Below are positions 1,759 to 43,279 of a DNA stretch of 64,000 bases, piece after piece (position 1 is the stretch's first letter; the number at the start of each line of letters is the position of its first letter). Origin of the DNA: Phoronis australis (taxonomy: Eukaryota > Animalia > Phoronida); the NCBI GenBank assembly GCA_002633005.1, contig NMRA01000163.1:581614-645613 (forward strand), given 5' to 3'. The translations under genes and the position numbers were made by a program. The notes beneath the pieces are model-generated. The model was not told the DNA's origin, did not search any database, and saw only the letters and a program-made list of their open reading frames with translations.

Positions 1759-1813
1759 GTTTTTGATGTCCAGTTATCTTGGTGTTTTTGGTGGTGATAA
1801 TCTAAACAACTGG
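1759..1813 (+). CDS. GSS: GSS copy A exon 5 (FLMSSYLGVFGGDNLNNW)
   Basis: ttttgcag|G...TGG|gtatgt; homologous to 31910-31964. Confidence 0.9.
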
Positions 1814-7800: not shown

Positions 7801-10800
7801 CCGATTGATGTAATGTTCATGAAATTTTGCACGTGTTCCTTTCATGGATGGTACGGCATGAGTAAACTTTCGGACGGATCCGACTCACGGTGTGCCCCCT
7901 AGTGGCAATAATTATTTTTACGTTTACGTGTACCTTCAAAGGTCCTCAACATATTTTCACAAAATTTGGTATATAGGCATCTGTTAGTGAGACGACAGTA
8001 TCCTTTCGTTTTCGGATGGATTTGACGTAGTTTGCGCCACCTAGTGGCCATTTTTCCTTTTTTTGCGTCTGTTTTTAGCGTCCACCCCTCTATCAACCAA
8101 ACCGCTTGAAGCATAATTGTGAAAATTGGCATGTATGTTAATGACGAGAACGGGTGACGATGATTTTCCGACGACTTTGACTACTGTGGCGCCTCCTAGT
8201 GGCAGTTTTTTTGCGTCTATCACTATATCTCCTAAACCGTTAGCAGGATCTTTACTTTATTTAGTAAGTGCATTTACATAATGATGACAACGAACAACAA
8301 CTTTCTGACAGATTTGACTACTGTTATGCCACCTAGTGTCAATTATATTTTTTTACGTTTTCCTCTGTATCTTCAAAGGTCCTCACTGTATTTTCATAAA
8401 ATTAGGTGTATAGGCTTCTGTTAGTGAGGTGACGCTATCTTTCTGTTTTCAGATGGATTCGAGCTAGGTTGCGCCACCTGGTGGCCATTTTTACTATTTT
8501 TTACTCTGTTTCTTGGCGTCCAGCCCTCTATCAACCAAACCACTTTCAGGACAATTGTGAAAATTGTCATGTATGTTTTTACTATGAAGTGGACATGTGA
8601 CAATGATTTTCTGATGACTTTGACTATTGTGGCGCCTCTTAGTGGCAGTTTCATTTTTTTCGCCCATGCGTGATCTTGACAAAGGACCACGCCGATCCCA
8701 ACGGAACGTTGATTTTAAATATGTTTCATGTACCTGTTTTCATTACTTTATTTTTAATACTACTGTCTACTTGCAATGTTTTCTTTCTTTCTGGTTAGGG
8801 TTGCTATCTTTTTTTTTTAAATGAAGTATCAAAACAACTTAGAAGTCAGTTAATTGTGAACCCGTCCCTGACTTTTCCAGTTACAGCTACACCAAACATG
8901 TCACAGGAAACAAAGCTACACTTTTTATTAGTTCAAGTTCAATCTTTATTAGAACTCAAATCATAAAATATATACAAAAGCGCAAATATGATCCTGGTAC
9001 GGGAATTGGGGATAGTTAGGCCTATAAAAGATCTTTAACCCAGCCGCAGAGCGTCTAAAGCCGCGCACCGTACCAGTGACTGCTGGCAACTCATCGGAGA
9101 CTCAACTTAAACATCCTTCGCCGCAGAGATAACAACTCTTGAGCTGTCTCCTGTGAGTCCATTCTTTGTTGAATGATGTTTAGGTAAAAAATAGCCAATA
9201 TGAGGATTTGAAACCTCTGGACGAATTTTGGTTGCAGTAACTGCATAACTATTCTAGCTTTTCCTCAGTCATAAAAAATGAAATCACAGATCTTGCCCAC
9301 CAACCAACCTCATCCACTGCTTGCACTCTCCCGTTGACTATAAAGCTATCCATCTTGTCACGTGGTGAATATCTTGCTGGTAGGCGGTTGAAACAACACA
9401 ATTTGATTTGGATGTAATAATGAGTATATTGACTAAATGTTTGAATTTCCCTAAATAAATAATCATAAAGATTAACAAAGAAGGCTAATTTAATCAGTCT
9501 GTGATCATGTTTCCCGTTCCTGGCGTCTACCTTGGATCCAGTGTTACACTTGTCCGGTTAGTGTAGGACTCCTCAAGTAAAGTAGTTCGGCATGCCCTGG
9601 ACCATAAGCGATGTTTTAAAAGTTATTGGCATCTAATTTAGCCACTGTGTGTTGTTTATAGATGTTTCAGTGTAGCTTAGTTGTATATTAAAAGAATAAT
9701 CCACGTGATATTATTAACTATGATCAGCATTTGTAAATCCACCGAGTATATCAATCACACAGTCGTTAATTGTACCCAATGTTCGTAGTTTTTAGCTTAA
9801 TAGTTGATCGGTTTTTAAAAATTGAAATCCAAACTTGGTTGTTTTTTCCATCTGAACACCGCTGTGGTATTTGTTTTTTTATGAAAACTGTTGGTTAATG
9901 CGTTTTGAAAAATCGCCAGTAGGCCTATGTACAGGCAGAGATGTTTACTACTGTTTATGGCCAGGTAGTTACACTAAATTGGATCTTGCTCGCACTGGAC
10001 AATGCGGTCCGACTCTGGTGCCACGCTCTCTTTGTTCCTGGTAAAAGCTGCTCAGGAGGATGAGCGATGAAAAGTCACGCATATCTTTAGAAATGCATGA
10101 CTTTCATGTAAGCGTAATATTCATGGCATGCCCCCCCCCCCCTCCAAGCCCAAAATGTAGGTTTTGGGGGACATGTTTGGACCATTCAATTATTGTAACC
10201 TTGTTGAATACAACAAGTAACCATGAGTGAAGGAAAGTAGAAATCGCTTCCGCATTATATGCAGGTTCTCATTCACTCCCTTTCATGCACCCACTACTAA
10301 GACCGAACTTAGAGGAGCAAGGGACACCTAATTTGTGCCATGCTCAATTGTCTGCCAGTAATGCCAGGATTCGAACCTGTGTCTCCCAAATGGGAGCCCG
10401 GAGCTCAAACCACTGAGCCACACTGTCTTCTGTTGTAATATCTTAACAACTGATTTGTGATCCACCGTCTCTGGGCAGGTGGTCGCCCCTTACCATCATC
10501 CAACAATGTTGCCACCTGTTGCACTAGGCTTGTGAACTGTACTGTTACAGTAGTAGCCCATTGCCAATTTCAGTCAAGGAGTGGTAAGTTTGGTTTAGTT
10601 GCTAAGACTGAATATAGTATGTCGGGTGGTAGTGTTTGTTTACTTGGTGGTTGCTTTTCTAATCCAGCTTTTCCTGGCATGATGTTAGATTAAACTAATG
10701 GTCGATTTTACTGTTTGTAACAGGAGTGGGCAGCAAGACTCCTGATTGAAAGGTCCAGCTGTATCAAGTGTCCATCAATCAATGTGCACCTGGCAGGAGC

Positions 10801-12528
10801 TAAGAAAGTGCAGCAGGAACTATGTAAAAGCGGTGTTGTTGAGCGCTATTTGAAGGACGCTGATGCAGCAGCTAGGATCAGAGCCACGTTCATGGGACAG
10901 TATTCACTTGAAACTGTACGTATATGTGTAGGCTTACCTATGCAGCAACACTGGGACCATTCCTGTGACCCACTTTCTTGACCCGCAAAAACAGTTCAGT
11001 GGTGGGGCAAAAATGCCATTATAACCATGATTATAACATGGACACAGGGCCACGTTCATTGGACAGCTTTCACTTGAAGATGTTAATGAATTCAGTTTAC
11101 TATGCATCCCCACATACCTGCTGGAGTGCATTTCATTGACCTAAGAATAATTTTTGTTTTTTTTTCCTGTGGCTCCATAAGTTACACTTGTAAGGTCTCG
11201 AGCAGACTCATGAAACACTCGCCTTTCACTCGCATGATTTTGTTATATGACACACATTTGTGAGTTTATTCTTGTGCCTGTAACTGATAACGCATGAATT
11301 TTTTGAAGGGAGTCTCTGGTGACCAAAGTGTTTCTATGGCATTATCGACACCCGGAAACTTTGTGCTGAAACCACAACGAGAAGGGGGTGGATTTAACCT
11401 CTATGGTGAAGACATGGTGCCCCTACTGAAGAAAATTCAAAATTCCAAAGAAAGGAGTGCTTACATATTAATGGAGTTAATTAAACCAAAGATATTCAGG
11501 AATGTCCTCATCAAGTCTGGATCACCAGTCACTGCCGGCGATGTGGTTGGCGAACTCGGCATATATGGTGTTCTTTTAGCGTAAGTTTGTTACAGTCCTG
11601 TAACCACATTTCATTATATTACTTATTACTCACCTTTCGCTGGCAAAAGAGCTTACATTTATTGTCAGGAGAAACATTAACAATTGACGTAATGTTTTGG
11701 GGATGCCCAAAACTAGTGGAATTTTACACCTGAGTGTCCATTTTTATACAGCCCACATAAATATAGCAGTAGTGAGACGAAACTGTCATCTTTTTGCATA
11801 ACCTTGCCCAAGGTCTATTCCCCTGGACGTGTAAATCCCAGCTGCGTGAGGTCTTACACCTTTAATGCAGATGCCCACTGCGCAGTGAATGATTAGTGTC
11901 GGGACATCAATGGATTCGGAATCAGGACAAAAAGTCACTTTTAGTTACTTGCAAAAGGTGGTCAACTTACTATATTCGATGCGTGTTACTCAAATGGCGT
12001 AATGCAAAAATTTGAGCTTTCCCTCTGACATTTGCTATTTATAGCTGGGACAGTCTTGATATCTCACAAACATTCTGTTTGAAATTTAAGCTGCCATATG
12101 TTTTGGAATTGACAGGGGTACCTAGTCCCCATAGTGGCTTAGGATTATGTAAATCATGGGACGGTATCATTCACGCAATAGGTCTTTTGAAATTGATATA
12201 CAAGGTCAGTGAAAACAGTTGTTTATGGGCCCTGCTCTTAGTCACGCAACTGTCCCAGATGGACCCTGTAACTAAACACAGAAAAGGTAATTCTTTTATT
12301 ACCCCCTGTGGATTCATGAATAGCTGAGCCCAGTATGATTCCTAGACTAGCAAATCCAAATCCTGTGTGGTGGTCCACTCATTTGAAGTTGTCTTTTTCA
12401 GTTGCGGTGATGAAGTTATAGAAAACCAGTTTGTTGGGCACTTGTTGAGAACAAAGTTATCTGGTGTAAAAGAAGGTGGTATTGCAGTCGGTGCGGCTTG
12501 CATTGATTCTCCTTTGCTGGAAGACTAG
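1759..12528 (+). CDS. GSS: Glutathione synthetase copy A, 5'-partial spliced gene: join(1759..1813,4344..4417,4720..4884,5638..5707,10724..10915,11309..11580,12402..12528); exons 1-4 upstream of window
   Basis: Seven GT-AG exons splice in frame into the C-terminal ~two thirds of a eukaryotic GSS. Motifs: RNIFDQR, YFRAGYTP, HLAGAKKVQQEL, VLKPQREGGG, ELGIYG, GHLLRTK..EGGIAVG..DSP, then TAG. Exon sizes 55/74/165/70/192/272/127 equal those of copy B. Confidence 0.95.
2575..2810. repeat. Degenerate intronic minisatellite, ~5 units of ~45-50 bp
   Basis: Recurring ttactgcttcatggtacanaccattatgatgtgagactgcactaat-like unit. Confidence 0.7.
4344..4417 (+). CDS. GSS: GSS copy A exon 6 (LPQNDPTQGMAKGLVKAWQVFKNE)
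   Basis: tttacag|CTT...AG|gtacag; matches the GSS N-P..G.A.G..KAW helix; homologous to 33501-33574. Confidence 0.92.
4720..4884 (+). CDS. GSS: GSS copy A exon 7 (AIILFIVEGESRNIFDQRQIEIDII...KELV)
   Basis: tttttacag|T...AT|gtgagt; RNIFDQR motif. Confidence 0.93.
5638..5707 (+). CDS. GSS: GSS copy A exon 8 (DGRTVAVTYFRAGYTPEFYPSDK, S-loop)
   Basis: ctttcag|A...AAG|gttagt; YFRxGYxP motif. Confidence 0.93.
7695..8690 (+). mobile_element. DINE-1/HINE-like (Helentron-associated) non-autonomous element with internal ~145-bp tandem subrepeats
   Basis: Starts with a T-run and hairpin (atgcgcccacatat-tt-atatgtggacgcat), then a GTCC/GTCT-type microsatellite (cgtccgtccggcgtctgtccggcgtcc), then two similar ~435-bp units (7892-8325 and 8326-8660). 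Confidence 0.65.
10190..10428 (-). mobile_element. tRNA-derived SINE
   Basis: Minus-strand head gacagtgTGGCTCAGTGGtttgagctcc...acaGGTTCGAATCCtggc (Pol III A and B boxes), followed by a non-tRNA body. The 3' boundary is approximate. Confidence 0.65.
10724..10915 (+). CDS. GSS: GSS copy A exon 9 (EWAARLLIERSSCIKCPSINVHLAGAKKVQQEL...YSLET)
   Basis: gtaacag|GAG...ACT|gtacgt; LAGxKKVQQEL motif. Confidence 0.95.
11309..11580 (+). CDS. GSS: GSS copy A exon 10 (GVSGDQ...VLKPQREGGGFNLYG...ELGIYGVLL)
   Basis: ttttgaag|GGA...GC|gtaagt; Gly-rich G-loop and ELG motif. Confidence 0.95.
12402..12528 (+). CDS. GSS: GSS copy A terminal exon 11 (CGDEVIENQFVGHLLRTKLSGVKEGGIAVGAACIDSPLLED*)
   Basis: ctttttcag|T...TAG; GHLLRTK and A-loop. 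Confidence 0.95.
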
Positions 12529-20613: not shown

Positions 20614-20809
20614 NNNNNNNNNNNNNNNNNNNNNNNNNNNNNNNNNNNNNNNNNNNNNNNNNNNNNNNNNNNNNNNNNNNNNNNNNNNNNNNNNNNNNNN
20701 NNNNNNNNNNNNNNNNNNNNNNNNNNNNNNNNNNNNNNNNNNNNNNNNNNNNNNNNNNNNNNNNNNNNNNNNNNNNNNNNNNNNNNNNNNNNNNNNNNNN
20801 NNNNNNNNN
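20614..20809. other. Assembly gap (196 N)
   Basis: Run of N. Confidence 1.
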
Positions 20810-22262: not shown

Positions 22263-22623
22263 GGAAGTTGAAGGCAACCGCGTTTCTCTGAGCCTATAGG
22301 CCTAGTGATCCGATGCCTCCCGTTCATTAACGCTAGGACCTCGCTAAAAAGCAAGACTTCGCGAGATTACGAGAGATATTGCCGTGTATTTTTAATTAGA
22401 ACACGTGACTTTGGCTAAATTTTAGCTAGGGCCTAGCGTACGTAGGTCCTAGCGTTAGTGAACGCACGCCAGTAATGAGTGCTTCGCGCAAGGAGAAGCA
22501 CGCCTACTCCGAAGTCCTGTGAGAGCGAACGCGGCAAGTCTTCGGTCTTGCAGCGAGCGAGCGAACATTATACAGATAAGGTTCGTGTATTGCATTTCAG
22601 TCAGTACCGAATCAACCACAATT
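22263..22623 (+). repeat. ~360-bp near-identical direct repeat, copy 2
   Basis: Matches 19610-19967. Confidence 0.9.
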
Positions 22624-23088
22624 AAAGTTAACGAAATCAAAGGTTCAGGTCCTTAACGGGTTTAGCGCTGTTGTGAGGAGACGGGGCGGAGCAACCGACA
22701 TCCGCGCATATAGGCCCTAGAATCGTCATGCCGACGTTGTTTTTCTGGTGGCACCTGTTAACGTGAGGCGGGCGCCTGCCCTCAAATCCCAGTAGCCAAT
22801 TAAGCCCCCTTATTATTCAATTTCCTTCATTGCAGTTAAAATGTAAGGCTCCCCACCAAACAGTTATGGTGGCCTCACTTGCGGCGAAATGGGGCACACT
22901 GGCATCAGGTAGAGGAGGGATATAGTCTCGAACTCATTGAGAGTCTGGGTGTGGACAAATCTCGAAAGCGAGACCATTTGGTAAGATGTTTAAAACATAA
23001 GCCTGACAAAGCCTCTCTGATTACATAGAGGGTTCTTCGAATGAACGCTGTCTTTTCACACGAAGCTCCGATCTGATTTATATGTAGG

Positions 23089-25463: not shown

Positions 25464-25551
25464 ATGAGCGCAATGTCGTGGATGGAGAACCTTAGTGAAC
25501 AACAGATTGAGGAGATCGGTTCGTTTGCAAGAGACTGGGCGTTTCTTCATG
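25464..25551 (+). CDS. GSS: GSS-like copy B exon 1 (MSAMSWMENLSEQQIEEIGSFARDWAFLH)
   Basis: A.DWA..HG N-terminal GSS motif; donor G|gttagt. An acceptor-like ttattccag at 25448 suggests an upstream non-coding exon. Confidence 0.88.
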
Positions 25552-28500
25552 GTTAGTCGTTTCATTATTCTCGTAACTACTCTATCTGTATCTGGATATC
25601 ACGTTCAAGGAAATCGTAGGCAACTAGACAAACTTGGAATAGAACAAAACCTATTTTAACTTTTTTCTTTCGTGGATGTAGGAAAAAGTAACATATTGGA
25701 TGGCTGACGTGTGTTTCAAAATATCTCGGGCACTCGCGTTGCTTAACAAAGGATGTGCATACAACATTACGTCTCAAAATGCAATTATTCAGGTTTGCCT
25801 GAAGAACAATGGCTGCACTTGATTGAGAAATCTGATTGGTTCTCGATGTCTAGTTCCGGCTTTTAAACCAATCAGGTGTCTTAGCCGTTTGACCCAGCGT
25901 GACTGGCTACGTCAATCATGTGCAGCCAATGTTGATTTACGTAATTCTTACTGTGTGGAAAATGACTTGTTCATTTGCAGCTATAAGAATCAGAACAAGT
26001 GCTTGCCACATGTGTTGTATTGTGGGTGTATATCTTAGAATCAGAGTGGTGTTGTGCTGTTTCTTCACATGAGGCAACTCGCACGCTAACATTTAGCCTT
26101 TGTTTCCCTTTCGTAATTGCGACCGAAACTTCGCTCGTGTCGTACAACTGTAATCGTTACATTCGATGAAATACTGTTTTGCATAACACGTGAGCTCTGA
26201 AGATGTTGCACAGTTATAAATTCACGCTCCAAGCTTTTGCCGGTAATTTTACGCTCATAATTTTAGCAAGATGTCGTTAGATTTTAGTACCAGTCCCCGA
26301 GACCACCAATAATTCTTATTTGATGTAGTTTTGTGGTGCAAATGGTTTGTTATTCAAATGTCTTGAATAAAAAAATGAATGATTTGCCACCAACATTTAG
26401 AAATTCTACTACAATACCCCGAAAACTGTTTTTTGAAATGTTATATATCATCTACACAGTCACACTGCTAAGAGTATAAGCGAATGAAGCTTGGCCTAAG
26501 TATTGAATAAGCACGGTAATTTCAACAAATAAAATAAAAACATTGTCAGGCAACCTGCTAGATTTATACTTTGGGACCTCAATATGTACAAAAACTAAAT
26601 CCCTGTGATGGCTGGGGTAGCCCGGCCGTAAACATAACGGTCAGTCTTCGATATTTTTCAAGCCTTTACACTTGTACATGTATACTTTGCACTTGAGATT
26701 TCACCTTCTGTGCACTCCATGACATGAGCAAAAATACGAGCATAGAATTACGAGCGAAAAATGCGGTGAGCGTAAAATTACGGGCTCACGTGACCTAAAA
26801 TCCAATTTCTCATTGGATATAACAATTACGAGCGTAATTACGGGCGACACACACGACAGTGACTAACCTTTCCTAAGCGTTAGGCACAGCCGCACTGCTG
26901 AAGAAAACCTATTCGCCAATTTCTTTAATACTGCACCAATTTTAAAAATTCGAAGACGGCTAATATTTCCTCTTCAATTTTAAAAACAGCCATGATGGTC
27001 GTTTGCTGTATTTATTATTCGTTTTTTGGCTTTGAAATATTTATTGTTCGTTTTTTGACTTTGAAACTCGTACGCATAACAGGCACGTTGTTATGACAAC
27101 AATTATCTCATCCAATACACATTCGGCCAAGCCCATGGATACCGACTAGCTCACTTACATGTAAATCTGTGACGGCGCAATCAAGTCTTTCACTTCGGTG
27201 TGAAAGACGCGCTCGTTCTCATCCACCTGCGTGCAAATAGCGTACGAGTTGCCTAATGCAGGTCGGGCCTAATACCTTGTGTACTGTGAGTTACGCCGGC
27301 CGTCCATTTGTTCGCTATCTGGGCTCCCGTGGCCGTCTTCGCTTGCGTGTCCGTGTGCATGTGTCGAGGCAGCAACTATCCATTCATTTTTTATGAGAAG
27401 CTCGAGCGTATCCTTGGATTTGTCATAGGTATTCAGTTCTCTTTTGATATCAACATCTATCATGTCCAACTGGCAGATCTATGATATGGAATTGGTAGTG
27501 GGGCCGCCACAGTTGAAAATGAAGAAATGTCCCCTTAGCCTCTAAATTCGGCAGATCCAGACCCCGAATCAAGCTAGATATGTTTTTACCAACTATTGAG
27601 CCAACTCTTGCGAGAATATCTTCTCTTTTAGTAGCGGCGTCGGGTCACTGGGCACAAAAGATAACCGGAACAATAGAAACTTAGATGGCGGGTATACGAG
27701 ATCTTTCGAAAAGACTGTAAATCTAGTACACTTATATTTTCGCTTAGTTCGGGAATTGGAACTGCATGAAGAACTTTTCCAGAGGTCATGTGCTTCCGCC
27801 TAAATAAGAGGAATTTCTTTACGTATTGGAACTGACACAGAAAATTTAGTAGAAGAGCAGAACAAGGAACGCTTATAGCCACCTAACTAACGTTCATGAT
27901 AATTTCCCTTCATCCTCTGTCATGACAGAAGACTACTCTCTTTACGATGAATTCGGCTTCCCCCCAACCACTATGACGGGGTCCAGAACGTTTTGCCAGA
28001 ATACATTTGGCTTGTGCTGTACTTGTTCCACTTTTGACAACCAGTCTAACACGGATCTATGCAATGGAACGCACCATGTCGCACCATGTGTATTCATAAT
28101 TGTTTACAATTTTCAGTGCAATGTGAAAGTTACTAAGCGTCTGTTACAGGGATCACCGTGCGCACACCTGAGGCTCCTGAAATTTCGAATAAAGCAATGC
28201 ACGTGTCTATGACTATGTTTCCTTCACCTGTCAAAAGACAGTTTTATAATGAAGCCTTGGCACTGCAGAGTGAATTCAACCTCCTCATGTTTCGAGTTGC
28301 CTGTGATCACGATTTTTTGGAACATTGTCTAAAAAGGTAATGCATATAGAGCGTTTGCAATTACGCCATCAGTAACCGGAAGTGTGTCATGTTGGAGGAC
28401 AAGCAATCAGTTGAGTTATCGCGAGTTGTTAGCTGCTTATAATTCCAACAGTTTGCATGGACTTCAACTATATTTTCATACTCCAAGGAACATTTAATTT

Positions 28501-31500
28501 CGACCTCGAGTTCAGAATTCACGCCACGCAAAATGGCCGACCCGATTTAAAGAAGTGACCCAAATTTTGCCACAAAAGTTGCATTAACTTTGTACTGCTT
28601 AACTCTATTTTAATACATTTTTATTTTTTTTATATGGGATGCATTATCTTTCCTATGATATTGGATAATTTCCTTAAAACGAAAAGAATTGGTTCGACTG
28701 CCCTATTGCAAAACTACTCTTCGGTCTTTCCCCCTTGATGCTCAATAATTATTGGAAGACAATATAACGACGTAACATCTCAATCACCCCTGCTCGAGCA
28801 GCCAGATATTGCTCAAAATTTTACCATTAGGCCTACACTGAATAAATTCTATCGAGAATTCAGCTGAGAAATGTGTCTGCCTCACGATACCACAATAGTA
28901 CTGAAATGTTTGCCCTCCAACGTTGGCGGATGACCTAATTGGTGACGTCATGTGAAAACACTATACATGATCTCGTGCTGTAAGTGATTAATAAAACTGG
29001 ACTTATTCTTTGAAATGAATGAGCCAAACGGGATTCATTGGTTTTTTCTGTCAGTTTTGGTTAGTCCTTCCTAACACTTGATGTACCATTGTCTTTTCGA
29101 CTTAATAGTACCAGGTGACATTAATGAAAGCAAAGTCTAACTGCAGTTTCTGAAGATTTATTCACTGGAGAAATGGCAAAAACTTGCATTGAAATTCATG
29201 GTTTTTCGTCAAAATGTAATGTTTTAGGCAAAAAATACGACATTTAGGATCTATTGTACTTTGGTTGGTTCTATAACAATTTCTTTATTTACTTTTTCTT
29301 TTTTTGGTTCTCGTCACGACTTCGACGACTGCGATTTCCTTTTTGAACATTACTGTGGCAGCCTACCTCATCTGTGGTATTTGTGTCATTAATCCTGTTG
29401 TGTTATCCAACATTTCAATCGTCATTGACATAAGATATAGTGCACATAATGCGGGCGCACAGATCTTTCCGTTTTGATAGGACGCGTATGACGTGCCTCA
29501 GTGGCGACTGTTGCTTCGTTTTGATTCTGTGTTTGTCAAAAGAAATAATTTAAGTTCTGAAACGAGACCACATGCACGTGTTGTACACGTCTCTGTAATT
29601 TTGTGGCGCGTTTTATCACGTTTGAAATCGTCTCAAATTTGTTTTATTTCAGTTCAAATTTGCGATCACCCAAAAGAGTTCTGAATACATTTTGACAATA
29701 TTCTGTGGCAGAAATGTTCCTTACATTATGCAGAACACGTTTTCTTTTGCTCAGAAAGTGACATTGCGTGCCACCGATTAGGCGTGCTACAATACGGTAC
29801 GTCAGGCATTTATTACTGGAAAGAGAACGGTGCCATTACGTGGTGGACGATTGTAAATTTGTGTGACACCTCTAGTCACTGTGAATTACGATTTGAAAAG
29901 GATCGCAAAAATATTTATTTTCTTGATTCATTGCAAAAGATGGATTGTTATGTTTGAAAATCTTGGTAAGGCTAAAACTGGATAGAAGCTCCTGGTCTCT
30001 TTCAAACTCATTTTGAGACGAACGCTCACCAACTAAGTTTTTAAAAATTTAAAAAACGCTCCTCCCCCGCATTAATTTCAAGCAGGGCCTCGTGTTTTTG
30101 TGCTTTTATTTTTGAAAAGCTGCAAAAAGGCAGGTAAGCAAGGTTAAGCAAGGTTTGAGAAGCCATGATTTGCAAAGCGATGAGTAAAAGAAAACAAATC
30201 CCGTATCAGGTTTGCTCGTCTCAAGTGTATTTTCCTTTCTGAAAAAGTGAGCAATTAAACAAATACCGTACCACCAACTCGATTTTCGAAAAAGTAACTA
30301 CTTTTTTGGCCTAATAAGCATTTTAGAACATCTTTCACCATTCAATATTCAGTCATAGCTTGCCTTACCGTTCATCAGTCATAGCGTATTTACTATTATT
30401 TGTTTACAGTGTAATTAAAGTTGATAGTTATACAAGAGGACTTTGGGACATTTATCAAAGCGTTCGGAAAGAGGGCGTAACTCAGGTAGTCCATTAATTA
30501 AACTATTAAAATATTCACGTGTCTTGTAAAACAGTTTTATCTGACATCTAATTTGGCATCTGGGTTTTAACGTATATTCGTACTCAAGCATTGATAGCTG
30601 ACTAAAGGTTAAAGAAGATGCTCTAATTGCACGCTCACCTATGCTATTTAGAAATCTAAAATCATATGCTGAAATTTAAACCTGCTATTAATAAATTTCG
30701 ATCTGCATTTTTATCATCGTTTAACTCTAGTTAAAAATATAACTATTAAATTTCTAAAACACACGGGAAATTGTCTACATCATCGACTTTGTCACTAGCA
30801 GACAGTGCCATTTCCAACTGGTAGTTGTTGAGTTTCGCGCTGCGTTCTTAGATTGCGGATCGGATCGGTCGAAATACAATTTGTTCTGAACTCTTTCGCT
30901 CGTATCTGAATTCTTCATTGTCATCCTTGTTATGGTAACCTTGCCACTCATTTTCATCCAAAATGTTCTCACTCACAAAATGTCAAAGGTCCGCCGTTCA
31001 ATATATTCGAACCACGGCGCAAAGCTGGCTGCGGGCCTGATGCTTAATGTGTGAGTTACAATGCAGCTTCACTATTTTGTGTTCTCCTAATTATTTACGT
31101 TCACTGAACTCGACCGTGAACACCAAATAGTAAGAAAGGCTGTGATAATTAACTTTTTAGAATCTGTTGCTCAATAAATATTTATTGTCTTTACTTCCAG
31201 CCCTATGCCCTCTGTTTGTTCAGAAATGACTTCATGGTGCACTGCCCAAATGAAGATGAGATGTGTTTGAAGCAGGTTGAATTTAATGTAATTGCTTCAT
31301 CCTTGGCTTCTCTCGCTCAAGAAGTTTCAGGCTATCACAGGTTTGTGGTAAACGGAATATTAAAAACAGGTGTACTCACAGTGTTCGCCCAGGTTAACTC
31401 CACTTCCAAATTTTCGAAAGATATACTTTAAAATAACCAAACATGTGCTCTGTGCACCAACTGCTTCTAGTGCCTTCAAATCGTCTAGTTCTCCATGGAC

Positions 31501-34500
31501 ACTCGTTTACAAAGACAATTTGCTCCTAATGTACATGTTTCTCTCACAAACGATGCACATCGCCTATGCCTATCTGATGTTTTGCGTGACGCTTACTCCT
31601 GCAGTGGCTGCCATGAATGTTACTATTAACTCGGGTTGATTCCCGCATAATCTGACCTTTTAATTTTTGTTTTCAACACTCGTGCTCGACTCAATAGTCT
31701 CTCTCTGTTTTTTGGTTTCTCAATTTGAACAAGGCTTAATTCTTACTTTTCAGCGAATAGCAGAGTGCTCTAGCTTCATCCAGGGCCTAATTAGATAGCT
31801 GTTCATTATATAAAAAATATTCTGTGTTGAAGGAATAATTTAGTAAACGGAGCTTTGTCAGTTTTTTGTCCATGTAATGCATGTCATGCGTTGTTGTATC
31901 ATTTTACAGATTTTTGATGTCAAGTTATCTTGGCGTATTTGGTGAAGACACGTTAAACAGTCGGGTATGTTTACTTATTAACCACATATTGATTAGCGCA
32001 AATGCGCGCCTATGCAAAGGTGTGCGAAGCATTTGCCGCAAATCCACGCTACGGCCCACAAAAGGATGTGAATGGGGGTTGCTTGGATCACCTGTTGGAG
32101 TAGATGTTAACTTGATTTCAGATTATGTAATTAAAATGCCTTTAAATGAATTATGGTCGCAAAATATTTACTTCGAATGGGATACCTGGCTGCACCTATA
32201 AGTCAGTCTTGGACACTTGGATTTGTGTCAGTTTTCTTCGTAAACTAACACTAGCGAATTATCTTACTTAGATACATGTATGGTCAAATTATCTTCACAT
32301 GTAACCACATACTTCCAGACTAACAAGGCATGACATTGTGGTGTAGTATTGGTTATAAAAACAATGCGAAGTAACTATTTTTGCTTTGATAGCTTCCCCT
32401 TCTGTCCTGTCTCGTAATTTCTCTCTTTGTGGAACTGTTTTTGAGCCGACTCATGAAATGTCGTCCATTCCCATGACATGTTGTTTGGCAGTTCTTGGCA
32501 AGCCGACTCAACTTTTAATTTATGACATAACGTTGGCCTCAAAATAGTTCCTTACTCAGGTCAGAATTGATCTCTGAAGTGACATTGTTAGGCCATGTTC
32601 GACCATAAAATGACCTGCCTGGTCAAGCTGGTTTCTTAAACCTGCCCTCTGACAGCTGTGAACATTCAGTTCTTTTCAAGCCTAGGGTTCAGAAATTTGG
32701 TGTTACACACCTCTCAACTATAATCTGAAAAATTATTAAAATCTCGGTACTATAGCAAAGATACAAAATCTATGAGAAATATACCCATTGCTTTTAGTTA
32801 CTAAGATAATTTGTTTGAATTATTTCTAGGCAGTAATATGCTAATACTTACATGACTAAAACTTTATTTAATAATTGTGAAGTGAGAGCGTATGACAAAT
32901 TTCTGTCTTAAATCTTAACTCAATTTTCATGAAAGAGACCCCAGAAGTCACGTGCAACTCATATAAGGGACTTTTTGTGGCTAACTTTAAAATTAGTTTT
33001 AAGCGGGAGATGGGTTCGCAGCAGTTTAGTTCAACTAATTCTAGCTGTGTGACTGCTTCTTCTGGAACATTTAACTGGTAGAAATAAGAGGATGCTACTT
33101 GAACCTTGTCAAAGCTCTAACGTTTATAGCCATTTATTACGTAGTTTGTTATTTCATCAACGCTTTTGTCCAGGGATATCCCATTGCCATTTCAATTTGT
33201 TTACTTCAGTGGAGTAGTTTTGACGTTGGCGTTTTTTCCTCTGTGAAAGATGTTCGATGAGAATTATTGTGTAATGCATCTTCTAATTTTTACCTAAACT
33301 AGATTTATTTTTATTTCTATGCCATTTTAATTTGACCGAGGACAAATAGTTTCAATTACAACAAGTAATGCAGAAATAATCGAGAGTAAACAGTTTAAAT
33401 GGTTGTTTTAGAACTTGTCAACGTTCAATTCAACCTGTCGTCTCTGGTAGGCCCACCATGTGAAACTTTGAATTCATTGAAACTCATTGATATTTCTTAG
33501 CTTCCACAAAATGATCCGAATGAAGGTATGGCGAAGGGACTCGTGAAGGCTTGGCAGCTCTTCGGACAGGAAAGGTACATTGTTTACGCCGTGCGTTTAA
33601 GGTTTTAACAACTGTCTCGGCTAAACACACACACTGGAATTTTTTTAGAAATTTCACTTTCTAAGATTGTGCGTTTGAGGATTAACATTTTCATAGATTT
33701 TATCCGCGGAACTCACACTTCTTTAAAAGCGCTCGTATTTCCGTGAACATCTGCCAACAGCGAATTCCACCTCCAAAAATGTGAACTATTCCCTTGAGCG
33801 ACACAAAAACATTGCATTTACTCTCAATTTAACCATAACCACTACTCTTCTTTGAAGAAGACATACATGTACATGTAAAAGAAGTTTCTGCTCGCGTACC
33901 TTTTCAGCAGTTCCTTGTGTTTGGTCTAGTGACATTTGCATTTCCTGGACATGTGAATCTTATCCTCATACGTTGACATCGCGATGCGTACTTGTACTCA
34001 CCTTGATGTACGATATCAATAATTACAAAGTAACATCATATGACTACAAGGGACCCTTGATGTCAACTCAGGCGACTTCATGGAGCTTGATTTATTGGAT
34101 CTCAGTTATAAAACATTTCTTTTTTTCAGTGCAGTTATATTACTTGTTTGTTCGCAAGAAATTCGGAACATATTTGATCAACGTCAACTTGAGATTGCTA
34201 TTATTCGACTTGATTCTCGCATCAAAGTCATTCGGAGAAGTTTGCGACAAGTATGCGACAGGGCCTCAATGAATTCCATGAAAGACTTAGTCATGTAAGT
34301 ACTCAAAACTGGTAGATGAAAACAGTAACTTTACAGTTCACATATTAGACATCTAAGACATCTGTGAAAGGGTGATTGTAACCAATCTATGGCTAGCGTG
34401 CGACCAAAATATTGCACTGTCAAATTTATTCACTCATATGTACAGGAGTTTTCAAAAAGCTGATAAATCCTCTTTCTGTTGAAACTGGCGAAATTTCAGA

Positions 34501-37500
34501 GTAAACATTTCAATTGATTTTCAAATGTTATTCGAAAAAATATTGTTCGTCTGATTTCTTCTCCGGTTGTCTCCTTAACTTCGACCATGCTACTTGTAGA
34601 CAAATTTCGACGAAATCCGACAGGGGTCACTTTAGAAAAACGTGGCCTCAAGTCTATGGATCAGTTTAGAGGTACTATGGGTCACGTTAGTATCGTCTGT
34701 CCTTTTTAGATTCTGTTCTTGGGGCTGGCATAATGAGTGTGATTTCGTCTGCTGACCTTAGTACATACATGTAACGTTTCGCACGGATAAGCGTTTGATT
34801 TAAATAGCTAACTGCATTTCAATTAAATTCACAAATCCGCTCTTGGAATAAGTATTTTCACAATGTGTTTTCCCTGTTGTCGGTGACATTGTTGTTTTGA
34901 TCTCTAACGTTAATTTCGGTTCGCTGCCTTGCGTTGTCACTGTGTTAGAAGCTGAATGCAATACGTACATGTATGTGCGCAATATTTCGACACCGTTTTA
35001 ATGTGCCGTTTAGACGGAGAGCAATGACAGTGCAACATTTTTAAGCGACGATGGCTGCGACGCACTTTCCTCATTTTGCTAGCAGATATTGTTTAAATGT
35101 TTTGGTGAGCTCCTATACCCAGCTCATGCAACCACGCTCACTGCACTCCGTAATTTGTGAAGGTTTTATCAGAAATTCATATTCATTTCTATATCCCAAG
35201 GTCTATTGTTGTCGCCTTCCATGCAAGCTAGTGTTTTCAGAATCCTCATGGTGGTAGGTTAAAACACAGAAATCAACTCACCGTACCACATGCGCTTTAC
35301 GTGTGTCCATGAGCCTATAATGAAGATGCGCCTGTATCCAGAATTAGGCGTACACGTACATATTCGTGCGCCTGTTTTGTGAAACACTAATGAGTAAGAG
35401 CCAATTTTCAAAATATTACGTGAGTGAACGTGGCATATCCGTTTTAAAATCGTAAACACTGAAGTGTGTATTCAACTCTGAAGTGTTAAATGAAAACTAG
35501 CCATTAGGCTGGACTTAAAAACCTAATCTTTTTAGACCACTGATCGTTTTGTAAGCAATAGGATTTTAAACTGTGTCCTGAAACATAAGAAACCTGATTT
35601 GGAGAGAAAAGCATGTTTAATTACTACATTAGTTAGAATTAAGGTCGAGATGCCTGAAATGGTCACGCGGAAAAGATAATGAACCCTATTTTAGTGATTT
35701 CTACCAATCGTTGTTTTATTCCCTGTTAATGCATCGTTAGGGCCGCCCTTGAGTGACAAAAAATAAAACAGGCGTGCATTAAAAGGACGTGAAAACCTCG
35801 CAAAGCCACGCTACATTTCGTGAGACATCGCCCTGTATTATAAACGAATTACGTGAACACATTTAGCTTCGTCGTTTTTCATAGGTAGGCCAAAACCGGG
35901 TTTCGTACCTTGTAGATTACTAACAGTGAAGTCATTTATATTCTCTAAATTTGTTCACCTACTTGTTACACTATCGTCTCCACAACATGAGATGATTAGT
36001 AAGTTAGAAAAAAAACTAGTAACAATATGCGTCAGTGGGACCACTTTTATTCCAATCTTTTCTCGCGAAGGTTGTAAAGCGATTCACATCCACTTCTTTA
36101 TCAAATCACTGCTAAGCCTATCTTGTGATGACTCCAATCCAAGAAATTATCTAGCTTTTGAAAGAAGTATTTTGAAATCTTAATGAATTTCCAAGTCCAA
36201 TTTCCTGTCTGGAGGGAGAATATTCCTTTTGAACCACTGTAGTACAACTCTGGTAAAAAAAAACTTTTATACATTTGTACGTGGTGTGAGCATAACTTTG
36301 TATTTATTTAAAATCTTTGGACACATGAAACTTTTTCTGCTACACATGGAATTTCATCTCTCTTAATCGAGCTCTAAAGCTTTTAAGCTTTAGAGCTTAA
36401 AAGGGAAATAGTGTGAACTTAATTATTTAGATATTCACTGAGTTAGTCAACACTACCGCCCATTGTCTTACTTAGTTCCGGTCAAATTAACTCCACGTGT
36501 AACCAGGTGCAGTATTTTCTGACGAAAAAAGCATATCACTGTCTTGTATAACTGGGCATACAGCAATACCAGGTAACCATTTCTACTTTTGAAAACTTGT
36601 TATGCTTCCGTTGTTTGTAAGTTGTTCCTTTGGCGAATTATTTTTAAGCGAACTCACGAAATGTCGTCTTTCCATGACATATATTGGTGACAATTCTAGT
36701 AGGTGAGCCATCTCGTGGACGAGGCAGTCTCGCCATCTGGTGACAACATACCTAGATGAAAGCAAGGGTGATTCCTTTAAAGTTACTTTACCGAAAATTT
36801 CCCAGATTTTTTCTAATATCGACTTAAGCAAAAAGACAAATGTTCCCCGTGACCAATGCACCCCCGTATTCCTTCGCTTAAAGGCCAATATATCATTTTC
36901 CATTGTTCTCTAATGGTTCAACGTTTCCCAGGCAAATGGCCCCCACACGTGAATTCAATTTCTGCGGTTAAATTGTGCCTTTTCGCGCATTAGATTCTTA
37001 AACTCATGTACTGTAAGTCAATAACCCCTCAATTAAGAAGTTCCAAGTGCTCATTGCGGTATCAACTAAAACTGCACGTTGAGTCGTTTTGTTGATTTTC
37101 AGAGATGACAATACTGTGGCTGTTACCTACTTCAGATCTGGCTATACACATCGAGCTTATCCGTCTGAAAAGGTTAGTTTGCTTTATTACCAGAGTAACG
37201 ATGTGCTTTTAAAATGTGTGGTGTCATTCCGCATGTGAGCACATTTATGCCCTTGGGTCTATGATTGAAGGTGCGGTTATATTATCCGGAATTTTCCCAT
37301 GCGCCTGTGTATGAATCATTTGAATAAAATCATGTGAATGAAACTTGACCTTCTGTTACAAAATGAATGGATTTCTCACGTTCTTCCATTCAGTGAGCCT
37401 TTCGGTGTGCCCCCATACTGCACACGTCTACACCTTACAGGTTATTTGCCCTCTTCGCGGACACTGTTATCAAATACACTCCTTGCTGTTATTCTGGGCT

Positions 37501-40500
37501 GTGTGAGATACGCATCTTTGACGTGGAGACGCGCGAGAAAAGCTAATTTGATCATGTGCCTCGCTTGCAATGCATTGCGATATCTCGCGAAGGCTCACGT
37601 GATCTTGAATTTTTGCAAGTTTCCTGAAGCGAGTTTATAAAAAATCGCACGCGAGGTCCCACGCTGGTATGTTTTTAAACCTACGTCATCGGGAATTTCG
37701 TCACTCTAGTGGCTGTCCGATATTCGAATTATCGTTCTCGTTTCTGTACGAAGCAAGTTTGCAACGTGGCATGAGGGCAAACACGTAACTTCCGCGAAAA
37801 CATCTGTGCTGCAATAGTACATTCAGTAAATGTGCATCTTAAGTCCGTTACATGTGTACATGTATGTAGGGTACACATCTACAGCGTTTGTGACGATAAT
37901 TGTGGATTAATATATGTTGTGGGTTATGATATCTCCATTCATGATATGCAAGCCGATTTAAACTCGGGCGATATCACGAATATCGATTTTGTAACCCACA
38001 GTTATCATCACGTGCTCTTTCGGCAACGCTGTATATTCGAAGAGTCAAAAAAATTATGGCGGCCTTAGTCAAACAATTCAAAGTAAAAATATTATTTAGG
38101 CAGTTTGACTGCTTACAACATATGACATAAATGTAAAAGCGAAGTTGCACGTGTCTGAAAAACGACCACGACGTCGTCCACGAGCATAGTAGCCCCACAG
38201 GTTGGAAAACCCAGGTCTATGCCCAGCCACCCAGGACACTTGCCAAGCACCTGCGGCGAAACAAATTTGCTTACGGAACGGAAACAGTGAATTTTATGGC
38301 ATAACTAATCATTCCAACGTCACCGACCAATCACTTCAGTGGGCGCCATTTTTTTAGGGAACGTCAGAAGGCTTCCGAGCATACTCACCTTTCACTCTCG
38401 TGATCTTGCTTTTTCGCAAGATTCATGTGTCTACGGAATGCAACCCAGAACTTGAGTTCTTTGTTTAAACGCAAAATCAAAATACAACAAACAAACAACG
38501 TTTACGCGCGAAAAAGAACACAGGATACAACCTTCCGTAGGCCTATATGGCACATCATGTGAAAATTACAGGTGATTACTGTAGGAGAAGTCAGGCGAGA
38601 CCCACGGCCACTGTGATGTCTAAGGTACTACATGTAGTCGTGCGTTCAGTTTCATAACTAAAATGGATTCTATAAATTACGTCATGTAACAATGTTGTGA
38701 ATGAACAGTAATTTATCTAACAACACTTTGCGATTGGACTTTTGAAAAAGCCCGGGGTAATGTTGCCACATTGATATCGTTGTTTATTCGCTAATAAGCA
38801 GGTTTAGAGTTTCGTAGAGACAAGAAGCTAGCAAAGATAGTGATTATGTAGTTCTCTTGTAATACATGTACAGTACATGGCGATATCTCGCGCTCGTCTT
38901 GCATTTCCGCGAGATTCTCGTACCCCTGAAAATAGCTCGGCACACAAGTTGGTGATCTGAGATGCTTTCCGTAGTGCAAGTTTCTAGCGAGGAAGAGCGA
39001 GATCGGGCAAGACCAAGAGGGAGTTTCGCCAGAAGTCTCGAAACCTCACCGGCGTAGACTAGCAAAGTGGTCGCCACTGAAGTAATTGGGAGGCGAGGCT
39101 GAAAAGTTTAGTTATTGGAGGAAATTTAGGCCTATGATTTCCGTTAAAGAGGTGAAGGCTTCCACTATGGCAAGTGTCACTACAAAACACTTCGTTTCCA
39201 CTTGTACGGGCCGCAAGGTTTACGAAAACGCGCCTAGCTCGGACAGTGCTGCTCCCAAGTACGGACAGCACCAATTTCACTATCTAGATGCGGGACGTAC
39301 ACTGTAGAAGCGCAATTTCGCCACTAGGTGCATACTTAAGCTTAGATTAAACTAATTACCAAATTCACTGTTTGTTTATTGTAGGAGTGGGCAGCGAGAC
39401 TCCTGATTGAAAGGTCCAGTTGCATCAAGTGTCCATCAATTAATGTGCACTTGGCCGGAGCTAAGAAAGTGCAGCAAGAACTGTGTAAAAGCGGTGTTGT
39501 GGAGCGCTACCTGAAGGACGCTGATGCAGCAGCTAGGATCAGAGCCACGTTCATGGGACAGTTTTCACTCGAAACTGTACGTATATGTGTAGGTTTACTT
39601 AAATTCCGACGGCGACACGGGGACCATTCCCATGATCCACTTTCTGGATCCGCAAAAACAGTTCAGTGGTGGGCAAGAAGGCCATTATTGCAATATGGAA
39701 ACTGACATGAATGTAGACGGTAAAAATATTTTTGTAAAGGGAATGACTTTATGACATTTTCGGTTAGTATTTTAATTTACGCACGTTAAATTAAAAAATA
39801 ACGTGCGTAAAACGGTGATAATGGGTGATAGTTCAAAACATATTCTGCCATGCGTTCCGTTGCCTGATTTATAGTGATGGCATTCAGTTGGTGGCGGTAA
39901 AACAAAAAGCAGGTGGTGGAAACGATTTCGTTGCCGAGCTTGTAAATTCCAGCCTTGGTGAGGGAACTGGTCCCTGGAACTCAGGACTGAGTCCCCGGGA
40001 CTTGGTCACGGAGTCGGCTCGTGCGTGTCGAAGAGTTTGTTGGCCCGAAAGGGTGCAATTGTATAGCTGGTTTGGTTTCTACTGCTCGGGCAACTGGTGC
40101 CACCGTAGTTGGAATTGACTGAGGCGCGGACGTGGGATCATTTCCGTTTCATGTAAATGGTACTGTAACGAAGACGTGTTGTATTCAATCAGTATTAAAA
40201 ATCCCATCTCTCAAGTGGTGACCTCTATTGACTTCACGTTACTGTTGTGTCATCCATAGTGGTATCCGCTATGCAGCCTCAATGACTGTCGTCTTGTAGT
40301 GGGCCGCGTTCCGGCCGTAGACCCACTCGCAATGCAATTGAGACGTTTTCACTCATGGAACGGAAACACTGAAGTAATGTTTGCTAGAATCATTTCTTCC
40401 ATAAATTACTTCACTGTTTCTGTTTCAAGCTAATTGACCTATCGCCAGGATTTAGAGTGACTGTTTAACTGACCAATCGGAATGCAGCATTCTTGACGCA

Positions 40501-41559
40501 CCTTCATTTCCAAGCCGCATTATACCCGTCAAACAACACGTGGTCAGGTAAAACGTACTGTCTGTTTGTCGACTTTAGGCAAGTAGGCGGAGCTTGCGAT
40601 AGGTCAATTACGAAAGGAACAGTGTCGTGTGCGAAAATAAAGGCAACTCTAGAGAAGAAATAGTATTGGGTGACATCATGAGAACGTTGCAACAAAAGTT
40701 TGTGGTATTGCGTTACAGTGAGGAGAATATAACAACTAGGAATATTGCATGAGTCACTGTTAATGAGATATTTTAGCTACGCTCTTCCAAAAATAGTTGC
40801 TAAACGTCGGTTTTGTTAAGGAAGAGAATCGTTTGTTTGATCTTACAGTGTACCTTTGTAGGGTCCCGTCGGTGACCAAATGGTTTCTATGGCATTGGCA
40901 ACACCCGACAACTTTGTACTAAAACCACAGCGGGAAGGAGGGGGAAATAACCTGCATGGTCAAGACATGGTGCCCCTGCTGAAAGAAATTCAGCATTCAG
41001 AAGAAAGGAATGCTTATGTATTAATGGAGTTGATTAAACCATGGGTAGTCAGGAATGTTTTCATTATGCCTGGATTGCCGGTAACTTCTGGTGACGTAAC
41101 AGGAGAATTAGGCGTATTTGGTGTTCTACTAGCGTAAGTTTCGAGCTCAGTTTTCTTACATAGCTTGCCACGTACACTGCACTTTACTGTGGATGACCAA
41201 TTATGGAAATCTAATGTCTTTGTATCAGCAAAATCACCGCGGTAATTCCCGTGGTCTTTACGGCGAGGTTACCCTTCTGTAGTGAATGTCTTTCGTTAGC
41301 TGTAATTCTTTTGAACTTTCTGTTTGTAAAGTAACCTTTGTAAAACCTGCTGTAGATGTCGAACCGGCAAATCAAAGCCATGCGTTATTGTCTTTTTATA
41401 ACTCCACAAGGCTCTCGAATCTACCTTTTCAGGTATGAGGACGAAGTAATTGAGAACAGGTTTGTTGGGACTTTGTTGAGAACAAAGTTCTCAGATGTGA
41501 AAGAGAGTCGTGTTTTAATTCGAGCTGCTTGCGTCGATTCTCCTTTGCTGGTAGACTAG
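25464..41559 (+). CDS. GSS: Glutathione synthetase-like copy B, complete spliced gene, 481 aa: join(25464..25551,28150..28336,30410..30485,31201..31340,31910..31964,33501..33574,34130..34294,37103..37172,39385..39576,40862..41133,41433..41559)
   Basis: 11 GT-AG exons total 1446 nt and are open from ATG (MSAMSWMENLSEQQIEE...) to TAG. Motifs: DWAFLHG, FPSP, LFRNDFM, KQVEFN, RNIFDQR, YFRSGY, LAGAKKVQQEL, KPQREGGGNN, ELGVFG, LLRTK, DSP. Substrate loops are divergent. The start could be any of three close in-frame ATGs. Confidence 0.95.
28150..28336 (+). CDS. GSS: GSS-like copy B exon 2 (ITVRTPEAPEISNKAMHVSMTMFPSPVKRQFYNEALALQSEFNLLMFRVACDHDFLEHCLK)
   Basis: ctgttacag|GG...AG|gtaatg; T.FPSP...Q..FN.L...V..D..FL motif. 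Confidence 0.93.
30410..30485 (+). CDS. GSS: GSS-like copy B exon 3 (VIKVDSYTRGLWDIYQSVRKEGVTQ)
   Basis: tgtttacag|T...CAG|gtagtc; aligns with GSS ..K.D.FT..L.DI...V.KEG..Q. Confidence 0.92.
31201..31340 (+). CDS. GSS: GSS-like copy B exon 4 (PYALCLFRNDFMVHCPNEDEMCLKQVEFNVIASSLASLAQEVSGYH)
   Basis: ttacttccag|CCC...AG|gtttgt; R.D.M and KQ.E.N motifs. Confidence 0.93.
31910..31964 (+). CDS. GSS: GSS-like copy B exon 5 (FLMSSYLGVFGEDTLNSR)
   Basis: ttttacag|A...CGG|gtatgt. Confidence 0.9.
33501..33574 (+). CDS. GSS: GSS-like copy B exon 6 (LPQNDPNEGMAKGLVKAWQLFGQE)
   Basis: tttcttag|CTT...AG|gtacat. Confidence 0.92.
34130..34294 (+). CDS. GSS: GSS-like copy B exon 7 (AVILLVCSQEIRNIFDQRQLEIAII...KDLV)
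   Basis: ttttttcag|T...AT|gtaagt. Confidence 0.93.
37103..37172 (+). CDS. GSS: GSS-like copy B exon 8 (DDNTVAVTYFRSGYTHRAYPSEK)
   Basis: gattttcag|A...AAG|gttagt. Confidence 0.93.
39385..39576 (+). CDS. GSS: GSS-like copy B exon 9 (EWAARLLIERSSCIKCP...FSLET)
   Basis: tttattgtag|GAG...ACT|gtacgt. Confidence 0.95.
40862..41133 (+). CDS. GSS: GSS-like copy B exon 10 (GPVGDQ...VLKPQREGGGNNLHG...ELGVFGVLL)
   Basis: cctttgtag|GGT...GC|gtaagt. Confidence 0.95.
41433..41559 (+). CDS. GSS: GSS-like copy B terminal coding exon 11 (YEDEVIENRFVGTLLRTKFSDVKESRVLIRAACVDSPLLVD*)
   Basis: ccttttcag|G...TAG; same length as copy A exon 11. Confidence 0.95.
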
Positions 41560-43279
41560 CCAGGTAAGTTATTTTTGGCATTCGATGCCAAAAAGTGTGT
41601 GTTCATTCCAATTGTAAAAAGCCGAATATTTTCTAAAATATCGGCGTTTCTTTGCCATAGGGCTAATGTGTATTTTCTAAAAGTTTTTATTCAATAACAA
41701 ATAGAAGCTTCCACGAAAATGGAGAATATCATGTTTACGTGAGGTGTCCATACATTTACTCTTGACTATTTCAAGTTATCCCCCCTATTTGACTTCATAC
41801 GTTCAAGAGTTATGTGGTCGATTCTTTCAGCCTTATTATCAGATGTGATCTTTGCACGTGCATGGTTATCATAAAGGCACTTCATGGTGGAAATGACCCG
41901 CTTTTAAAAATGTCACAAGTTAGGAAAGTTTTCAAGAGCAAATTATTTCGTAATCAACGTAAAACTAGTCCACGAATTCACCATTCTTTGCACCTGCAGT
42001 AGTGTCCTGCGTTTAAGACACAATGCATACAACTGCTTACTGAGTCACAATCCAATTAAGCAGCAAATAAATTTTCGGAAAAACGTTTTTCCGTATTTCC
42101 TTCTTCCTGGAATGTTGCTGTTGCCTTTAAAGTTCTACGTGTGACCAGCACCTATCAAATCATGAATGGTATGGCGCAATAGTTCTACAACTTGTCAACC
42201 ATAACTTCTGAAATTCCAGTTAAAGCGAAGGGGTTTATTTCAACAAGATGAGTTACTGGCCTGTGTTTCTATTGCAGGTTGTGTTCTAGTGGTATCCAAC
42301 AAATGCATTTAGGTCACGGCTACCATATAGGCTACCGTTGTGAAGTTCCAAAAGCGCAATGTCAATATGGCGAGAGTCCTTTGCAAATACATGTATAGTT
42401 ACGCCAACAGACTCTCTACTATTTTTTTTTTGGTCATATTTCACTGCACCATGTAAAGCTGCATTATCAAGACGGGGGTCATGAGGAAGCAAACAAATTA
42501 CTGCGCGCAGCAGTATGTCCTTGATACCAAGCCTTTCAACCCATTTATGGATTAAACCAGCCCATCGCACGGGTGGCTGAGCGATTCAAACATTAGTTGG
42601 TTCGCATTTTATCATTATACTGTGTTAGGCGGCAACGAACCAGGTGCGCCGGTAGAAAAGCTACACCAACGCAATTTGACTGCATTTGACAGTTATTTAG
42701 TGTCCCCGTTACCGTATCGATTCATAGTTCCACATTCATATGTTAATTATTAGATACTGCTCAAGAAAATGAAATAAAAATTGTGAAACGTATTGAATAT
42801 TATAACTAATGTACTTTGGTTGACCTACTAAGGCAATGTGTACTTCTATCAGCCGAGCCACAGTCACATTTCAGTCTTCAGTCTTTTGTTCTCTATCGTT
42901 GGTCTGCATTGCAAGTACTTCAAGGCATTTATTCACACCCCAAGATGGTGGGCTATCGTAATGTTTACACGTTCCCGCGACTTGATTGGTTGATCGACAT
43001 GTGGGAACTGCCCAGTTTTCTCACTGGTCCTCGCCGACCGACTGGACCTACATGTATAGCCACACCAGTGTTACCTAGCAGGCTCAGCCGTACATTCTAT
43101 TAGTATAAAGTAGCCAAATACATGTATCTACAAAACTACAGAAATTAACTTTGTAAATGAATATGTTTTCTGATAGCTGAAAACTTTGATTTTTGATTTT
43201 GTACCGAACTGTCATTAGTTGGGTCACGTGACTATGTCTCGTTTGTAAAATTTAGTCAGAAAGAAAGGTACTAGATACA

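Follow-up and report, generated by a model that had tools for sequence, protein, structure and literature searches.

The locus examined here raises the question of whether a duplicated glutathione synthetase gene (GSS) of the phoronid Phoronis australis still serves glutathione synthesis or has come to act on another substrate. The window, that is, the whole stretch analysed, comprises 64,000 nucleotides (nt) of contig NMRA01000163.1 (assembly GCA_002633005.1, positions 581,614 to 645,613, forward strand) and carries two GSS copies, copy B (25464..41559, + strand) and, upstream of it in the same direction, copy A. A sequence-only reading of copy B had proposed an intact paralog with its catalytic machinery kept and all substrate loops rewritten, a candidate new animal ATP-grasp peptide ligase. 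Our comparisons indicate that copy B is under constraint as a whole and that its changes are concentrated, and we put the probability at about 0.45 that it is a ligase which likely activates a gamma-Glu-Cys-like dipeptide with ATP and likely couples it to a non-glycine amine.

Catalytic residues and substrate loops of copy B

Copy B forms a single open frame of 481 amino acids plus stop (1446 nt) in 11 coding exons of the + strand, and all 10 introns show GT-AG ends, which bears out the intact frame and perfect splice sites described for it. The ATG lies at 25464 in exon 1 (25464..25551), with a second Met 9 nt on and + strand RNA depth in that bin, and the first 35 residues hold no signal-peptide-like hydrophobic stretch (top 9-residue Kyte-Doolittle mean 1.3). 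Each of the six exons scanned singly matched PF03917 or PF03199 above the curated cut-off; exon 2 (28150..28336) matched PF03917 and carries two changes at conserved sites, P49S and L52M. Exons 5 and 6 lie at 31910..31964 and 33501..33574. Residues are numbered as in human GSS by way of a Xenopus sequence (P0040) whose alignment to residues 4-473 of PDB 2hgs is gap-free. Two sets served for comparison, namely 207 full-length homologues (420-700 aa, among 241 fetched) and 423 domain alignments from 387 proteins, near-duplicates included; the A-loop is covered by 327 of these alignments and the gamma-Glu site by 293. One of the source searches for homologues used an alignment with five misplaced exon fragments and is biased towards relatives of Haliotis.

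The ATP, Mg and catalytic set of copy B is complete: R125, E144 and N146 are encoded by exon 4 (31201..31340), K305 by exon 9 (39385..39576), K364, E368, the intact glycine triad G369-371, N373 and E425 by exon 10 (40862..41133), and R450 and K452 by exon 11 (41433..41559, to the stop codon). Together with R267 in exon 8 (37103..37172) and E399 in exon 10, all 12 residues named by the sequence-only reading therefore stand at their aligned positions, and E458 is retained as well. The five motifs quoted for the H-loop, gamma-Glu site, S-loop, G-loop exit and A-loop are likewise present in copy B.

The most radical change falls in the core of the A-loop, six codons of exon 11 at 41506..41523 (+ strand) that read S-R-V-L-I-R, namely G459S, G460R, V461, A462L, A463I and G464R, in place of the glycine-rich pattern GG-x-x-x-G. 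Gly occupies positions 459, 460 and 464 in 305, 320 and 324 of the 327 homologue alignments, respectively, and residue 460 is never larger than Ala, Ser or Cys. Neither R460 nor R464 occurs in any of these alignments, and L462, I463 and S459 were found in two, three and eight of them.

Changes elsewhere were fewer. Four of the six residues of the gamma-Glu pocket are retained, N216 and Q220 in exon 7 (34130..34294) and R267 and Y270 in exon 8. The S211 of copy B is shared with 33/207 homologues and is common in molluscs, while Ile214 (E214I, codon 34161-34163) was seen in none of the 207 full-length homologues and none of the 293 domain alignments. Compared with the canonical pocket (R267, Y270, N216 and Q220 with an acidic residue at either 211 or 214), copy B lacks the acid only, and an acid is missing at both positions in 2/293 homologue alignments; the neighbouring Glu213 may stand in for the one lost at 214. 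The H-loop (31285-31314, exon 4) is built mostly of residues known from the 207 homologues (A149 in 181, S151 in 175, A153 in 63 and S154 in 11), the rare ones being L152 (4/207) and V147 (1/207). The S-loop in exon 8 retains R267, G269, Y270 and Y275 and carries P272H; His272 occurs in a single one of the 207 homologues, 29 of which lack Pro272. Exon 10 further holds Y375H (His in 2/207) at what we take to be an ATP-site residue, not a substrate residue. Since most loop residues of copy B occur in homologues, the claim that all substrate loops were rewritten shrinks to one loop: it stands for the A-loop and for I214, and it does not for the H- and S-loops and the greater part of the gamma-Glu pocket. 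On this comparison the rewrite reduces to one radically rebuilt loop plus two or three rare single changes.

Work on human GSS describes the contacts of gamma-Glu-Cys, identifies V461 and A462 as glycine-binding through backbone atoms, and places P272 in contact with F99 (PMC6297838); the roles of D458 and of the loops are treated in bioRxiv 10.64898/2026.06.09.730884. Exon 3 of copy B (30410..30485) encodes F99Y, and F99Y and P272H may thus form a compensating pair.

Constraint and transcription

Nei-Gojobori counts over the 317 codons common to copies A and B gave a dS of 0.61, a dN of 0.15 and a dN/dS of 0.25; with exon 9 left out the ratio was 0.28 (bootstrap 0.19-0.41), and dS ranged from 0.6 to 0.7. 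Decay would be expected to bring dN/dS near 1 across the gene, which was not what the counts gave, and copy B is therefore no long-dead pseudogene; a pseudogene was rejected on the intact frame and splice sites, the presence of transcripts and this ratio together. Among 50 columns with 95% or higher conservation across the shared A/B span, three (G459, G460 and G464) are altered in copy B alone and none in copy A alone. A neutral copy B branch, with half of dS assumed for it, would be expected to have altered about 19 of the 34 conserved columns outside exon 9, and three were observed (P 2e-8). An overall acceleration of copy B was considered and rejected, because its longer tree branch (0.22 versus 0.09 for copy A) was not matched by the polarised changes in the shared span (18 on copy B, 16 on copy A and 42 ambiguous).

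Across the six A-loop codons the copies differ by seven nonsynonymous and two synonymous changes, with the flanking RTK and AAC unchanged and no indel. A pair of frameshifts behind the new loop was rejected. Over the four predefined active-site loops, A and B differ at 16/44 sites against 58/266 outside, a 1.67-fold higher density. In 688 homologue pairs at comparable distance, which are not independent of one another, the corresponding ratio had a median of 0.47, and 2/688 reached 1.67; the top pairs were largely other paralogs, mostly of abalone, sea slug and pipefish. On this single pair, the focused change of copy B would fit positive selection and local release alike.

Eight sequencing runs carried one organism label. 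Transcription was assessed with three raw RNA runs (X5, X6 and X7; 18-19% read), and a DNA run (X2), possibly the source of the window, was used as a check. The bins containing copy B exons showed coding-strand depth in all three RNA runs, with X7 at about one eighth of the level of X5 and X6, and depth over exons 6-7 was lower (~1-3). The junction of exons 10 and 11 was crossed by six X5 and eight X6 reads, all on the coding strand and with GT..AG ends, and the joints listed did not include the middle junctions of copy B. The gene is thus not silent, which had been named as one way in which the proposal could fail, and by rough arithmetic its level amounts to a few reads per kilobase per million. 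No differing letter was listed over the A-loop codons in X5 and X6 at a depth of ~6-12, and X2 agreed, so an assembly error at the A-loop was rejected. A probable intron in the 3' untranslated region (UTR) begins 4 nt past the stop (41564..42277, + strand, ends approximate), as the loose ends of three X5 reads match letters at 42280 behind an AG acceptor.

Some reads aligned to copy B match neither copy. Joints placed over 37145-39383 carry an S-loop reading GYSPKCLPTEK (Y275L; 27 and 23 reads), and an exon 9-10 joint placed over 39574-40868 (54 and 51 reads) is unlike A or B as well. Because these joints match neither copy and their letters are absent from the window, there seems to be a third GSS paralog outside it whose expression appears to exceed that of copy B. 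Copy A contributed 8/15 reads in X6 and 1/6 in X5 at the exon 11 end.

Possible activities of copy B

GSS works through an acyl-phosphate intermediate, and R450 holds the glycine that is added. In a copy B with a changed acceptor, R125 would hold the dipeptide carboxylate while Mg-ATP phosphorylates it, both the G-loop and the A-loop would close, and the acyl-phosphate would be attacked by an acceptor bound to R450 and to the backbone of 461-462. The loss of G459, G460 and G464 together with Leu-Ile at 462-463 would reshape the acceptor slot, which the two new arginines would flank. Activation of a gamma-Glu-Cys-like donor is likely retained, because R125, S151, N216, Q220, R267 and Y270 remain; of the two substrate changes suggested earlier, a different amine fits the A-loop, and a different acyl donor is weakly supported, with only the acid at 214 lost. 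A longer or anionic acceptor such as beta-alanine, taurine, Asp or Glu is a speculative choice, made because Leu462 matches the legume beta-alanine enzyme and two Arg flank the slot. More tentatively still than the ligase itself, a working copy B could be pictured as making a new glutathione homologue (gamma-Glu-Cys plus taurine, beta-alanine or an acidic amino acid) under an arginine-lined lid that would be absent from characterised GSS, and as an extreme case of a repeated, undescribed repurposing of GSS in free-living animals.

A number of observations weigh against a changed acceptor. Both the legume homoglutathione synthetase (hGS) and the nematode GS-like effector Gpa-GSS22 retain G459, G460 and G464 in our alignment, so no known active specificity switch removes the A-loop glycines. 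G464V is a human GSS deficiency allele (PMC11725857) and P272A, with 94% of activity lost, is nearly dead (PMC6297838), and loss or weakening of ligase activity would for these reasons fit the copy B sequence too. Nematode Clade 2 glutathione synthetase (GS) is described as still preferring glycine with two specificity residues not conserved (PMC5919673). The A-loop dN/dS of 2.0 refers to six codons picked after seeing them, the loop enrichment is weak alone (Fisher P 0.054), and when exon 9 is left out its P rises to 0.28 and 23/688 homologue pairs reach the A/B ratio. Pairwise dN/dS averages both lineages, with which a recent relaxation in copy B would be compatible. Copy B is also a minor transcript: at five sites in exon 9 its letters occur in 1-5 of ~150-163 X5 reads, and at the same sites in 6-7 of ~139-172 X6 reads. 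Finally, protein searches, cluster representatives and a metagenome scan yielded no copy B ortholog in other species.

Several of these observations would suit a copy B that is crippled yet retained, which folds and binds ATP and gamma-Glu-Cys with an A-loop that cannot close, and which we consider rather unlikely. The joint loss of three near-invariant glycines, two of them to Arg, the effects of G464V and P272A and the predominance of other copies among exon 9 reads speak for it, and since GSS is reported to be an obligate, negatively cooperative dimer (PMC6297838), such a copy might act as a heterodimer partner tuning the active copies, if not as a binding protein or an ATP-dependent enzyme other than a ligase. 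However, a non-catalytic copy would need fewer of the residues that copy B keeps (R450, K452, E458, the glycine triad and all Mg and ATP ligands), and its changes cluster at known specificity sites. Continued glutathione synthesis, slower or with other kinetics or regulation, perhaps in a tissue- or stage-specific isoform, appears less probable again. R450 also holds glycine, four of the six gamma-Glu residues are in place, and the low depth in X7 would agree with a restricted isoform; the backbone contacts of 461-462 with glycine suggest that side-chain changes may spare its binding (PMC6297838), and Clade 2 GS is an instance of retained canonical activity (PMC5919673). Yet nothing above Ala, Ser or Cys at 460 and no Arg464 occur among the 327 alignments, and a pocket with no acid at 211 or 214 is as rare as noted above. 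Early decay of a gene long constrained, recently released and not yet broken is improbable. Decay would be in keeping with the low expression of copy B, with two substitutions (P49S and L52M) that affect conserved positions away from the loops, and with the want of a cross-species ortholog showing constraint on the present sequence. Against it, all three departures peculiar to copy B among the 50 conserved columns sit within six codons, where several separate substitutions and no indel occurred; the reading frame is unbroken, every splice site is in order, and both RNA samples agree with the DNA run on the A-loop.

If copy B is an active ligase, it would offer a clonable enzyme that makes a new small thiol or peptide, and it would show that the near-invariant A-loop glycines are dispensable; if inactive, it would be an expressed GSS pseudoenzyme. 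The abalone and pipefish paralogs described below, with the third copy, suggest recurrent repurposing of GSS. Plants are known to contain glutathione homologues in which the third residue differs, and we found no description in the open-access literature of a dedicated enzyme for such a homologue in a free-living animal.

Copy A, relatives and characterised systems

Exons 5-11 of copy A occupy 1759..12528 on the + strand (1759-1813, 4344-4417, 4720-4884, 5638-5707, 10724-10915, 11309-11580 and 12402-12528), and its exons 1-4 lie upstream of the window. Exon sizes are identical to those of copy B, with nucleotide identities of 73-82% and, in exon 9, 93%; the lower values led us to reject a haplotype duplicate. 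Over 348 nt, exon 9 with its flanks (10685-11022 against 39342-39688) shows 86% identity between the copies; a single amino acid in 64 differs, and dS is half that of the other exons. Owing to this identity, the shared intron flanks and the halved dS, exon 9 is likely a gene-conversion tract between the copies. The view that copy A stays nearer the canonical enzyme was supported in part: it retains the A-loop glycines, but it carries N372F in the G-loop (exon 11309-11580), and Phe372 occurs in 0/207 homologues (Asn in 187, His in 19 and Tyr in one). A scan of the window found no more GSS exons; in the copy A intron that follows exon 9, the 3' end of this exon recurs as a short and degenerate repeat (11046-11078). 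Another copy A intron holds an ARAGORN tRNA-Gly(CCC) call at 10356-10427 (- strand), probably a tRNA-derived repeat.

Repeats occur elsewhere in the window. Between the two copies, a 364-nt direct repeat of 98% identity (19610-19970 and 22263-22626) flanks a gap of 196 N (20614-20809). Palindromic elements like small inverted-repeat transposons lie at 16544-16777 and 47491-47619, with arms related to the second at 56812-56900, and a tandem array of ~155-nt units extends over 58377-58947. Broken frames at 53939-54479 and 56277-56928 recall a Penelope-type endonuclease and the pol of a long terminal repeat (LTR) retrotransposon, and a Pfam scan of both gave no match at E 0.01.

A quick tree of 71 rows hand-picked from 209 groups A with B (support 100) within lophotrochozoan GSS; the exact place of the pair is weakly supported. 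Copy B is ~44-46% identical to its best animal homologues. No close relative of either copy was found in protein searches or among cluster representatives; exon 10 gave at best ~58% identity over most of its length, and exon 9 gave 62-63%. The metagenome scan returned 11 loci, each a distant, GC-rich GSS whose A-loop is canonical. The assumption that animals usually have one GSS was not sustained for many invertebrates, several copies being present in Haliotis, Aplysia, Lingula, Mizuhopecten and Babylonia. Some GSS paralogs of abalone, sea slug and pipefish (P0130, P0134, P0147, P0169, P0055, P0056 and others) have altered H- and A-loops, and no description of them was found in the open-access literature. 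The 'glutathione synthetase-like' paralogs of abalone, Aplysia, Elysia and pipefish resemble copy B in being extra copies with loop-focused change, and a Haliotis paralog combines G459S with A462R. They arose by duplications independent of A/B, however, and the six numbered sequences differ from copy B in that all retain G464 and all but P0169 retain G460.

Measured against characterised systems, copy B shares with eukaryotic GSS (human, PDB 2hgs; PF03917 and PF03199) both domains and the catalytic, Mg/ATP and G-loop residues, and it differs in the loss of G459, G460 and G464, in Leu-Ile at 462-463, in the missing acid at 211/214 and in P272H. As a new animal ATP-grasp ligase it has a published animal precedent in the GS-like effectors of cyst nematodes (PMC5919673). 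According to that source, the Clade 3 effectors retain both the ATP site and the catalytic Arg, have all six gamma-Glu residues changed and, given gamma-Glu-Cys, accepted none of the tested amino acids (PMC5919673). These animal GSS paralogs resemble copy B in the conserved ATP site and catalytic Arg and in the altered pocket; they differ in being secreted and in having changed all six gamma-Glu residues (PMC5919673), and in our alignment GSS22 keeps the A-loop glycines. Copy B departs from the Clade 3 effectors on both counts examined, since by hydropathy of its first 35 residues it has no signal-like N-terminus and since it retains four of the six gamma-Glu residues; its own changes lie mainly at the amine site.

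The legume hGS (soybean, PDB 3kaj/3kak/3kal) resembles copy B as a GSS duplicate in which Leu stands in place of human A462; human A462/A463 align with soybean L487/P488. Changes at sites equivalent to 462/463 are reported to shift the acceptor in yeast and Medicago enzymes: with Leu-Pro there the yeast enzyme accepts Ser, and two more changes lead to beta-alanine (PMC3473041). Unlike copy B, hGS has Pro rather than Ile after the Leu, keeps all three glycines, and is a plant enzyme of independent origin; where it shows Leu-Pro inside an intact GG...G loop, copy B shows Leu-Ile with the glycines gone. By its domains and catalytic residues copy B is a member of the GSS family, outside the sequence definitions of canonical GSS, hGS and the nematode effectors alike, and by analogy it may work most like hGS in concept.

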